NCBI GenBank assembly: GCA_963713615.1
Contig: CAVQMM010000001.1
Location: 1,120,001-1,184,000, forward strand
From: an uncultured Chlamydiae bacterium
Lineage (GTDB): Bacteria > Chlamydiota > Chlamydiia > Chlamydiales > JAJFMA01
Length of the DNA stretch: 64,000 nt
Reading direction: 5' to 3'
Under the pieces are notes generated by a model. That model was not told the origin of the DNA. It did no database searches and saw only the letters and a list, made by a program, of their open reading frames with translations. Shown here in pieces: positions 17,696 through 53,148 of this stretch. The stretch's first letter is position 1. Every line of letters begins with the position of its first letter. Made by a program: the position numbers and the translations under genes.

Positions 17696-18538
17696 ATCGA
17701 GTAGGGGGGAGCCTACCGGCTCCCGCCCTCTCACACCACCGTACGTACGGAACCGTATACGGCGGTTCATGATCGCTATGACCTAGCGCATACTAGCTTC
17801 ATCATTGGGATGTAACCCATGGATTCAATTTCTCGGTTTGATAAGGCTCTGTGCATCCCTGGTGTTTTAGCCATTCTCCATGGCCCCTTACCGCTGTACC
17901 CACAATTTATCGCCGAGCGCTCTTTAAGCCCCAAAGCAACCAGACGTTTATGTCGGGTTCGAGGGGTTTTCCATTGTCTCCATTGGATATCTCTGATTTT
18001 CCGTCTGATCCATCCATCCAAACTCTGAAATACGTTTCGCTCTTCTGATATGCTAAAGTAGTTTGCCCAGCCTCTCGTGATTGGCATGATTAGTTTTCGG
18101 ATGCTTTCCGATATATTCATGCCTCTCATTTTCCTGGTCAAACTCCTCACCTTATCTTTTAAACGTTTCACTCTGCTTGGGTGAACGGTAATTCTTCCCG
18201 GTTGCCTTCCTATGGTAAAGGTAAACCCCAAGAATTTCCGTTCCCATGGATGGGCAACGGCACTCTTCTGCTCGTTTACTATGAGTTAAACTTTCCTGCT
18301 AACCTGTTGCATCTACATTGACTCCTTCCGAGTAAGTATTGGACTTTGGGTTATACCGCACCCTCATCCTAGGAGCCCTCTGCCTCTTATGCACTTCCTG
18401 TTCGTCAGGTCAGCATTTTGTATACGGCTTTCTTCAGATTCCATCTCGCGATGGACACCCTTGCCTTCTCTAACGGTTCTCCTTACTAGAGCCCGTAAAG
18501 GACTTTCACCTTCTAGTTTAACGACATACCGGTCGCAC
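17696..18538 (-). mobile_element. Group IIC intron, internally deleted copy 1
   Basis: 5' GTGCG at 18538; DV gaaccgccgtatacggttccgtacgtacggtggtgt with CGC triad; 3' end ...ctactcgAT. Confidence 0.92.
17776..18280 (-). pseudogene. ltrA: C-terminal remnant of group IIC RT/maturase
   Basis: VNEQKSAVAHPWERKFLGF, GWANYF, LDGWIRRKIR, WRMAKTPGMHRAL; RT catalytic core absent. Confidence 0.9.
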
Positions 18539-18933
18539 AGTTCGCATACTTCTGAAAGTAGGGAACTTGCATCTGTGGCCAAGATCCGGAAAAACAGCCA
18601 AAAAGCGACCAAGGGATATTTCCTGTCAGCCTCGAAGGACTGCTACAATGCATGCATTTATGGCAGCCCTACAGGCTGCTAAAACCGTTTTGGCATATAC
18701 CATGGCGGTGCCATGGCCTGTTGCAATATCGACCCTTCGGGCCTGGGAAGGGAATGACTCTCTCTTCACCGGCATCCGATTTTCAGGAAATTGACTTCGG
18801 AAAATCGGACTTCTGAAATTACCTCAATTGGACGAGCTGGACTGACTGGACCAAAATGGACACTTTTTTTGTCCAGTCAGTCCTATCAGTCCAGTTGCAG
18901 GAATTTTGTAGGTAAGCGTCAATGCCTTACGCA

Positions 18934-20628
18934 TCATCGAATAACACGCGCGCAGCGCTCTGGAGCCCCAACACGATTCTGCTGTTGCCCCTTCTTGATT
19001 CCTTGTTGCTGCTGTGGCCTCGGGCTAGGCTGTGGTCTATTTTGGTTCTGCCGTGCAGTAAGCATCGACTGACGGCGCTCTTCATTACGCTGAGGGCTAT
19101 GGGTACTTCTTCCAGAGTTACGCTGCTGCTGGGGTTGCTGATGCACTTCTGATTTGGGAACCGTAAGCGGAGGCGTTTTAAAAACTGTACGGCTTTTTAA
19201 CCTCTCATCTTGAGTTTGCCCATGTTCTGGATGTTTCTCCTGAGTCTGTCCTGGGGTCCTTATCACAGGCTTCTGGATCTGTTTCTCCTGCGGCTGCGTT
19301 CGAATAACCGGATGCTGTTGATCCGGGCTCACAACGCCCTTGTTGACCGTTTTAGGTAACAGGTCGGCAGTGTTTGGAACGATGCCTCTTTTGCCAGATG
19401 TGATACCATTATTTATTTCGATCATGGGCTTATCCAGTACAGCCTTATCTTCGTGGCTACCGAGCGGCTTAAAAATTTGTTTAGGCTCAACCACCTGCTT
19501 CACAACATCCTTTTGCACCAGCTTCAAGTTCTTAACTGGAACCACTGGGAGCAGAGTAGCAGGACTTTGCTTGGTCACCTTGGACAATGCTCTTAGATAC
19601 ACTGATGGCTTCACAACGCCATGCGGAGTCACTAAGAAGGGAGTCTTCACATAATGATTCCATTTACTCAAAAGTTGTTGAGTAGGCGGATGGATGTGAG
19701 TGGCCATTTGCTGCGATAGCCAATGAGGCTGTGGATATCCTGGATGACAATACCACCACCAAAGGCCCCAATTTTGATGCCAGTTATAACACCACCACTT
19801 CGGCCATGTCCACCAGGGCGGGGTACAATTACAGCTATTCCAAAGGTCCTGGTGATAGTGCCAATGATGGTGGAAGAAGCAGCCATAATCGGGATAGTAA
19901 AGATACAAACGCTGAACACAATCCCAGGGATCAACCACTAACCAAGGAAGATACTCGAAGCCAATACGTTCTTCTGGACGGATGAAGAGACTAGCATAGA
20001 CCACACCCCGCTGCTCTAAAGGCCAATCCCAGAATGAAGGCACAAGCCGCCAGCCTTCGGTCCGCCACACATAATGAGCTGGTACCAGTATCCAATTGGG
20101 ATCAAGCGGTTGCCATTGACCTTCCAGCCAGGAGTAAGAATGTGTAGACTCCTCATACTCGAAATAGCCCGGTGCCCAAAAATAATCCTTGGATGGTGGC
20201 GCCTCTGGAGCCTCGTCTGGTTGATCTGGTGGTGCGAGAGCAATATGCTGTGCCACATTCGCAGACTTGCCCGACCAAAACCCACGAACCCAAACGGCCC
20301 CCTGATCCAACAGCTTCCACTCCCCAGGTACCCAGTGATGGCCTGGAGGGGGCTGACGCCATACTCCACCCACCCAGATGAAGTCATTGCGCTCAGCGTC
20401 CCATTGCCAATAGCCAGGAAGCCACGTGAGACCTTGTACCTGGTTAAGAGGAATACGTTCTAAAATAGCTTGAGGAGGAGGCGAAGGTATGCCATCGAGG
20501 ACATAGGTGCCTGTCACCCTAGTGATGTAGGCTTCGTGAATGGGACCACCATCTATAGGCTCAAAATCCTGCGCATAAGCAAACACGCTGAAAGCCAATG
20601 TCCAGAAAAAAAAAGCCAACCGCAACAT
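18934..20628 (-). CDS. Exported YXWGXW/WXXGXW-repeat protein with Gln/Pro-rich tail
   Basis: Signal peptide, GPIHEAY, repeated WLPGYWQW/WVGGVW/WVPGEW/WVRGFW. Confidence 0.8.
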   Translation of the reverse strand: MLRLAFFFWTLAFSVFAYAQDFEPIDGGPIHEAYITRVTGTYVLDGIPSPPPQAILERIPLNQVQGLTWLPGYWQWDAERNDFIWVGGVWRQPPPGHHWVPGEWKLLDQGAVWVRGFWSGKSANVAQHIALAPPDQPDEAPEAPPSKDYFWAPGYFEYEESTHSYSWLEGQWQPLDPNWILVPAHYVWRTEGWRLVPSFWDWPLEQRGVVYASLFIRPEERIGFEYLPWLVVDPWDCVQRLYLYYPDYGCFFHHHWHYHQDLWNSCNCTPPWWTWPKWWCYNWHQNWGLWWWYCHPGYPQPHWLSQQMATHIHPPTQQLLSKWNHYVKTPFLVTPHGVVKPSVYLRALSKVTKQSPATLLPVVPVKNLKLVQKDVVKQVVEPKQIFKPLGSHEDKAVLDKPMIEINNGITSGKRGIVPNTADLLPKTVNKGVVSPDQQHPVIRTQPQEKQIQKPVIRTPGQTQEKHPEHGQTQDERLKSRTVFKTPPLTVPKSEVHQQPQQQRNSGRSTHSPQRNEERRQSMLTARQNQNRPQPSPRPQQQQGIKKGQQQNRVGAPERCARVIR

Positions 20629-52311: not shown

Positions 52312-52325
52312 TGAGACAGCCCGGG

Positions 52326-53148
52326 ATCGAGTAGGGGGGAGCCTTCCCGGCTCCCGCCCTCTCACACCACCGTACGTACGGAACCGTATACGGCGGTTCA
52401 TGATCGCTATGACCTAGCGCATACTAGCTTCATCATTGGGATGTAACCCATGGATTCAATTTCTCGGTTTGATAAGGCTCTGTGCATCCCTGGTGTTTTA
52501 GCCATTCTCCATGGCCCCTTACCGCTGTACCCACAATTTATCGCCGAGCGCTCTTTAAGCCCCAAAGCAACCAGACGTTTATGTCGGGTTCGAGGGGTTT
52601 TCCATTGTCTCCATTGGATATCTCTGATTTTCCGTAGGTTGTACGAGGTTCCGCCCCGATTCCTTCGTTTTAGCTTTGGACATTTCTTCTTTTCTGCGAT
52701 TTTCTGTTGTCATAGAAGTTAGGGTCTTTCCTTTGTTTTCATGTTCGGACCTTCATCGTCTTGCGACGAGTTACTATGTCGTCTGCTGACTTCTGTACCT
52801 TTCACGTCATCTCTCCGAGACACCGCTAGCTCATGTCGTTCCCCTCTTTTGTCGGGTAGTAGTCATGCGTGAATACAGATCTCACCGGGTAATTCGTTAA
52901 ACTTTCCTGCTAACCTGTCGCATCTACATTGACTCCTTCTGAGTAAGTATTGGACTTTGGATTTACACGCACCCTTGTCCTAAGAGCCTCTGCCTCTTAT
53001 GCGCTTCCTGTTCGTCAGGTCAGCATTTTGTATACGGCTTTCTTCAGATTCCACCTCGCGATGGACACCCTTGCCTTCTCTAACGGTTCTCCTTACTAGA
53101 GCCCGTAAAGGACTTTCACCTTCTAGTTTAACGACATACCGGTCGCAC
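52326..53148 (-). mobile_element. Group IIC intron, near ORF-less copy 2
   Basis: 5' GTGCG at 53148; extra 5' ribozyme sequence retained relative to copy 1; ORF start fused out of frame to its C-terminus at ~52635; DV/DVI intact; 3' AT. Confidence 0.92.

Follow-up and report, generated by a model that had tools for sequence, protein, structure and literature searches.

How does a group IIC intron find its target where no terminator is at hand? The question is raised by two such introns on the minus strand of a 64,000-nt stretch of DNA from an uncultured Chlamydiae bacterium (hereafter the window, C1:1120001-1184000 of the genome labeled G000), since neither window junction shows a terminator-like site. 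Coordinates prefixed C1 refer to the contig and all others to the window; compared loci and genomes carry L and G numbers. One review sorts the target specificities of bacterial introns into three, namely homing sites, terminators, and attC sites (PMC4424553). Our comparisons make it probable that the two introns are decayed copies of a distinct IIC clade that inserts 10-14 nt past the loop of a hairpin, its last three exon bases matching a variable exon-binding site 1 (EBS1), and that likely reverse-splices into single-stranded DNA of the lagging-strand template, using a short stem and no spacer.

Two Deleted Group IIC Introns Flush with Palindromic Hairpins

Rfam models of group II domains D1-D4 and DV/DVI match the window at 17696-18455 and 52326-53065. 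Both introns begin with GTGCG, finish with AT, and carry the CGC triad in DV, and thus show the class C hallmarks of a GUGYG 5′ end, an AY 3′ end, and a CGC triad. They are real group IIC introns, with a geometry that is neither of the terminator type nor of the attC type. In themselves, however, both are ordinary decaying remnants, internally deleted to 843 and 823 nt as against ∼1920-1940 nt in full-length relatives. A deletion near 18284 has removed from copy 1 the end of DI, DII, DIII, and the reverse transcriptase (RT) part of the open reading frame (ORF), so that it passes directly from domain I into the maturase X domain; this copy is likely dead. Copy 2, in which D1-D4 is ∼7% divergent from the other copies, retains DI-DIII and DV-DVI and has lost most of its ORF through a deletion near 52633. 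The features are as follows (IBS, intron-binding site; REP, repetitive extragenic palindrome).

17696..18538, minus strand: group IIC intron copy 1, 843 nt (Rfam, BLAST)
17696..17767, minus strand: copy 1 DV-DVI with the CGC triad
17776..18231, minus strand: copy 1 ORF remnant, maturase X domain only (PF08388)
18354..18357, minus strand: copy 1 EBS1 (GGUA), pairing with the last three exon bases
18539..18567, minus strand: site 1 target hairpin, 29 nt, 11 bp, directly abutting the 5′ splice site, with IBS1 as its final bases
18568..18582, minus strand: site 1 outer palindrome, upstream arm
17681..17695, minus strand: site 1 outer palindrome, downstream arm, which is the start of the 3′ exon, IBS3 being T (from the empty homolog at C1:2302288)
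52326..53148, minus strand: group IIC intron copy 2, 823 nt (Rfam, BLAST)
52326..52398, minus strand: copy 2 DV-DVI (Rfam)
52965..52968, minus strand: copy 2 EBS1 (GUGU), one of four pairs in register, four of four when shifted one base upstream
53149..53176, minus strand: site 2 target hairpin, 28 nt, one of 26 GTAG-tagged REP copies, on the strand opposite the tag
53177..53181, minus strand: site 2 outer arm, upstream
52320..52325, minus strand: site 2 outer arm, downstream, IBS3 being C

An initial annotation of the window had described both minus-strand sites in this way, with each intron directly after a 28-29 nt hairpin within a longer palindrome, and its reading of the letters holds. 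The insertion point at site 1 is fixed because an empty homolog at C1:2302288 runs uninterrupted across the junction. At site 2, the junction (53149 / 52325) is one base longer than in the empty REP copies; an added C is the simplest account, but the alignment is ambiguous. None of 24 listed sequencing runs contains as much as half of the window, the best share being 0.24. It is possible that this base was added at insertion (possibly non-templated), that the 5′ site was shifted, or that copy 2 is recombinant.

The Copies in the Genome Share Site, Register, and Strand

BLAST recovers seven 5′ ends and five 3′ ends from the genome. All seven 5′ exons end in RYY (purine-pyrimidine-pyrimidine), which is IBS1, behind a hairpin, and the motif is shared because the main EBS1 allele in this genome is GGUA; the claim of the initial annotation that the two window targets share no sequence is thus not borne out. 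Under a strict rule (a stem of at least 9 bp ending no more than 1 nt from the site, with the loop 10-14 nt away), six of the seven copies qualify; the remaining copy has a stem of 6 bp, with its loop 13 nt from the site. Of 3000 positions drawn at random among those that end in RYY, 2.1% qualify.

In 7/7 copies the intron sense corresponds to the leading-strand sequence, that is, to the lagging-strand template (p = 0.008), with the cumulative GC skew at its minimum at 2868070 and its maximum at 814048. Candidate hairpins are evenly split by strand (356/714). A bias toward the lagging-strand template has been reported for class C introns (PMC8919778).

Two group II loci in the genome were noted separately. 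One (L001, C1:900425-900877, minus strand) is a group II intron truncated at its 5′ end; it comes from a different lineage and sits on a long branch, outside the IIC introns analyzed here. The other, at C1:2881659-2889735, is an intron copy split by a ∼1.2-kb transposase-like sequence and a 5.8-kb element with 150-nt inverted ends.

A Short Distance from Loop to Site Sets the Clade Apart

The same geometry recurs throughout the clade to which these copies belong. We compared 54 distinct clade sites with 70 sites of other IIC introns, counting a hairpin when it had at least 6 bp within 12 nt of the site. Left out of the counts were a site behind another intron, three false 5′-end calls, duplicates, and loci with less than 33 nt of 5′ exon, a rule under which 103 of the 158 loci in one set yielded no 5′ end; the metagenome flanks of multi-copy introns may be mis-joined. 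Hairpins are present at 52/54 clade sites and 62/70 other sites. In the clade, the loop lies a median of 12 nt from the site (interquartile range [IQR] 11-13) and within 14 nt at 48/52, as against a median of 18 nt (IQR 17-20) and 3/62 in other IIC introns. The figure is 41/45 once G000 is excluded, and the constancy of hairpin geometry that the initial annotation supposed from two sites is therefore a property of the clade. The stem ends no more than 1 nt from the site at 42/52 clade hairpins and 8/62 others.

Nor are the clade sites, as a rule, intrinsic terminators, defined by a stem, a spacer, and a T-rich tail. At least five T among the last eight bases are found at 1/54 clade sites as compared with 38/70 other IIC sites, which agrees with the absence of a U-tract noted in the window; an outcome in which most copies followed U-tailed terminators or kept no constant geometry, named in advance as fatal to the initial annotation, was not what emerged. 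A folding with the last 4 nt forced single-stranded, which predates the addition of the last 27 controls, gives a spacer of 0 at 33/49 clade sites and at 8/41 sites of other IIC introns, the median stems being 7 bp and 11 bp, respectively. Where both flanks are present, the palindrome extends past the site at 18 of 33 clade sites, as compared with 5.3 expected when 3′ exons are exchanged and with 3/15 in other IIC introns, so insertion into the 3′ arm of a longer palindrome, as proposed for the window, is frequent. Neither the pairing of IBS1 nor a long palindrome is required, however, since at L026, L130, L131, and L256 the stem has 7 bp and IBS1 is unpaired.

Two other arrangements were noticed among the compared loci. 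Eight 5′ ends of G046 introns, treated as outside the clade (L012, L020, and L247-L252), are all preceded by TAG, and the four foldable sites have a small hairpin exactly 17 nt away and share similar non-terminator targets; these introns are possibly another fixed-distance lineage, perhaps that of L075, the sister of the clade. At L006/L030, L096, and L136, an intron is inserted right behind the 3′ end of another intron, whose domain VI would serve as the target hairpin.

EBS1 Pairs with the Last Three Exon Bases

In the ID3 loop, the bases that come after the δ C make up EBS1, and they covary with the end of the exon. At positions 1-3, 126 of 150 possible pairs are Watson-Crick, where shuffled pairings give a mean of 41.5 and a maximum of 65 in 10000, and the count falls to 52 or 35 when the register is slid by one or two bases. 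Each of these positions pairs at 46-50 of 50 sites, and position 4 at 25/50. Because this pairing is strong, targeting by structure alone, as initially proposed, is unsupported.

EBS1 is highly variable in the clade, with 24 different triplets among 48 and 26% A (55% A in other IIC introns), and 27 different last-three exon sequences occur among the 54 sites. The variety itself is not specific to the clade, given 22 triplets among 34 other IIC introns. On the 3′ side, the first exon base is T at 16/37 clade sites and 25/31 others; IBS3 is mostly a pyrimidine, with which an invariant G could fit by wobble, but EBS3 is located without certainty, and a covariation scan gave no informative column covarying with IBS3.

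One palindrome family carries four introns at four positions (L088, L095, L124, and L078), of which the three clade members track their own EBS1.

The RT Places the Introns in a Clade Apart from attC Introns

A FastTree analysis of 95 proteins yields a clade of 55 rows with support of 100. In an IQ-TREE analysis (LG+G4, 46 rows), the RT fragment of the genome falls inside this clade with support of 100/100, apart from the integron introns represented by the attC references (L165-L167, from class 1 integrons); the introns are thus a lineage distinct from the terminator and attC types, as the initial annotation had suggested. The clade RT-maturase matches the GsI-IIC RT with an E value of 1e-136 and chain D of PDB 7uim with 3e-100 (phmmer), and its best matches among solved structures are IIC proteins. 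Full-length relatives of 467-474 aa contain only PF00078 and PF08388, with no endonuclease. In the clade consensus, one residue is inserted ahead of the "RGW" motif of the thumb, and the conserved Arg of "LT.R" is missing.

Among named genomes, the clade was found nearly exclusively in the Chlamydiales. Members at 68% identity or more occur in 10/401 genomes of the order of the host. None was found among genomes sampled from the phylum of an Alicyclobacillus (201 genomes), of an alphaproteobacterium (401), of a flavobacterium (251), and of a Syntrophus (251). The single member among 251 genomes from the phylum of a Saccharibacteria bin lies on a contig of 2.2 kb, almost the whole of which is intron. 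In a protein search, at least 120 clusters had 73% identity or more; almost all come from metagenomes, and one is labeled as a Bacillota bin. We found no paper on group IIC introns in Chlamydiae.

Repeats as Targets, and Other Alternative Explanations

The initial annotation saw in these sites a lineage specialized on REP and MITE (miniature transposable element with inverted repeats) palindromes, with the expansion of such repeats providing safe harbors. Parts of the evidence are what this reading would predict. The site 2 hairpin belongs to a 26-copy GTAG-tagged REP that has the tag plus palindrome, the copy number, and the inverted pairs at a Y1 transposase that define GTAG-type REPs, five copies flanking the transposase gene (PF01797) at C1:3873041-3873382; GTAG repeats have been reported from the PVC (Planctomycetes-Verrucomicrobia-Chlamydiae) superphylum (PMC3733652). 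Site 1 lies within a dispersed nested palindrome, its flank shared by 118 loci, and is surrounded by two inverted-repeat arms.

17543..17605: MITE-like host repeat, 63-nt inverted-repeat arm around site 1
18691..18753: MITE-like host repeat, partner 63-nt arm around site 1

Target hairpins are repeated in two of six relatives (5 times in G002 and 32 times in G065), and three of three partial copies of the G053 variant lie in one 13-copy repeat. On the other hand, the genome is rich in repeats (9.6% of positions fall in 16-mers with at least five copies), and no enrichment over the hairpins available in it was found. The target hairpin has at least five copies at one of the seven sites as against 22.8% of 250 sampled candidate hairpins, and the upstream 150-nt flank is repeated at four of the seven as against 39.2% of candidates, in a test that, with only seven sites, has little power. 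The target hairpin is single-copy in the other four relatives, so that most copies do not lie in REPs either here (1/7) or there (2/6), as obligate targeting would have it, and a complement of the REP tag is near the site at only five clade sites. Most of the harbors are also vacant: 25 of the 26 REP copies are empty in the genome, as are 22/22 other G065 target copies examined, although that genome is a draft and its assembly may have missed filled copies. Specificity for REPs or MITEs is therefore improbable, and the use of repeats appears opportunistic.

The family to which the site 1 arms belong is also present elsewhere. Five tandem 473-nt units occupy window 53286-55502, each with 63-nt inverted repeats that are the arms flanking site 1, and sequence related to this unit occurs at ∼120 genome loci as a MITE-like family.

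Somewhat less probable still, and unlikely in our judgment, is that the introns are of the ordinary IIC kind and grip in the usual way, their flush appearance arising from IBS1 pairing back into the stem, as in terminators flanked by A- and T-tracts. Eight of the 62 outgroup hairpins do end within 1 nt of the site, and IIC introns are known after terminators and also after "other inverted repeats," the splice sites lying 3-11 nt past the stem in vitro (PMC1702495), as well as after hairpins both with and without U-tails (PMC8919778). Pairing back, however, leaves the loop-to-site distance unchanged, whereas the clade median is 6 nt shorter with little overlap, and most flush outgroup sites keep 15-21 nt. 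The distance data largely refute this explanation.

That these might be IIC-attC introns, or share their stem-internal recognition on attC-like sites, is very improbable: attC introns, which insert directly after or into a stem-loop, do offer the closest known geometry (PMC7923331, PMC3001079), but the RT lies outside the attC group, IBS1/IBS3 is not TTGT/T, EBS1 is variable, and the targets are 25-30 nt palindromes without evident attC boxes, so that the RT tree and the site sequence rule out attC identity.

As a separate observation, the intron at L168 (NZ_KY863418.1), which shares the orientation of the cassettes, sits where the attC-like palindrome of an integron ends.

A Model for Target Choice

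Our preferred reading, that the clade measures a short distance from a hairpin loop and then pairs through EBS1, can be extended to a mechanism. We infer that the intron-maturase particle would dock on a stem of ∼7 bp and its loop, without a spacer, after which EBS1 would pair with the next three to four bases. Where those bases are themselves paired, as at most sites, the base of the hairpin would have to be opened. Reverse splicing would then proceed into the single-stranded hairpin at the replication fork, on the lagging-strand template, with the fork supplying the primer as it does for other introns that lack an endonuclease. Because any long palindrome contains such a substructure, REPs and MITE-like repeats, palindromes that are unique, and an occasional terminator could all be used as the host supplies them. 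In the only solved IIC target complex considered here, that of the Eubacterium rectale intron, the maturase holds both the stem (12 bp) and the spacer (4 nt), and IBS1 has 4 nt (PMC10190682); the clade would therefore need a different grip. The short reach thus likely reflects a different hold on the target DNA, and not a taste for repeats.

Several points weigh against this reading. It is built entirely by comparing sequences; the clade sites are not independent tests of it, since the trait maps to one branch, and 17 of the 54 were assigned by a 5′ intron signature, the other 37 by the tree. Hairpins are minimum-free-energy foldings of 45 nt. Four of the 52 clade hairpins lie at 15-20 nt and two of the 54 sites have none, while three outgroup sites fall at 12-14 nt, and the sister lineage L075 is known without its 5′ end. 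In a consensus comparison, the DNA-binding region of the maturase shows no clear diagnostic change that would explain the geometry. Within the genome itself, no copy has an intact intron ORF, EBS1 of copy 2 fails to pair in register, and two copies have lost EBS1, which was taken to be that of sister copies. The strand assignments depend on an origin placed by GC skew, 14 kb from one of the copies.

What appears to be new is the short, spacer-less geometry; our literature search found no description of the clade or of so short a loop-to-site distance, although several key target-site studies lay outside its coverage and an earlier description is possible. Whether the clade represents a third lineage-level mode of IIC targeting beside terminators and attC sites seems to us evenly balanced. 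In such a mode, the intron would measure about one helical turn from the loop and open the palindrome base with a freely variable EBS1, with neither spacer nor U-tract, and single EBS1 variants could lock onto a REP family of the host. A clade that has dropped the spacer and shortened the stem offers a natural comparison for what sets the ruler in IIC introns. Its many natural EBS1 variants show IIC targeting to be open to redirection toward palindromes other than terminators, which bears on why IIC introns have gone unused as gene-targeting tools.

Other Genes in the Window

Two further coding regions were noted, both on the minus strand. Window 56161-61857 encodes an RHS-repeat protein of 1898 aa that includes DUF6531, and the ORF of 173 aa that follows it has no Pfam match. 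Nor does the ORF of 571 aa at window 18934-20649, which contains repeats rich in Trp and Pro and ends in a Gln-rich tail.

Comparison with Known Systems

Copy 2 resembles the ORF-less IIC introns known as HYER ribozymes (PMC11754743) in being an ORF-deleted IIC ribozyme in which DI-DIII and DV-DVI are present. Unlike those ribozymes, it is a deletion product and keeps ∼230 nt of the ORF end.

The occupation of a REP hairpin by a mobile element at a fixed register is reminiscent of the REP-targeting insertion sequences ISPpu9, ISPa11, and IS1397. Those elements, however, are 100% REP-bound, whereas the clade intron is closer to the opportunistic case of the Pseudomonas putida KT2440 group II intron, of which two of nine copies are at REPs (PMC1525189).

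With the IIC-attC introns of the S.ma.I2 lineage, the clade shares insertion into the arm of a DNA stem-loop instead of behind a U-tract. It differs from them in forming a separate RT clade, in having no fixed TTGT/T site, and in using targets that are not integron attC sites.

The closest likeness in machinery is to the terminator-type IIC introns, such as B.h.I1, the E. rectale intron, and GsI-IIC, with which the clade has in common the CGC triad, an endonuclease-less RT-maturase, an EBS1-IBS1 pairing of 3-4 bp, an upstream hairpin, and a bias toward the lagging-strand template. In contrast to the 15-22 nt that separate loop and site in terminator-type introns, the clade uses 10-14 nt; freeing IBS1, which usually lies within the stem, leaves ∼7 bp of it, and both the spacer and the T-rich tail are absent.

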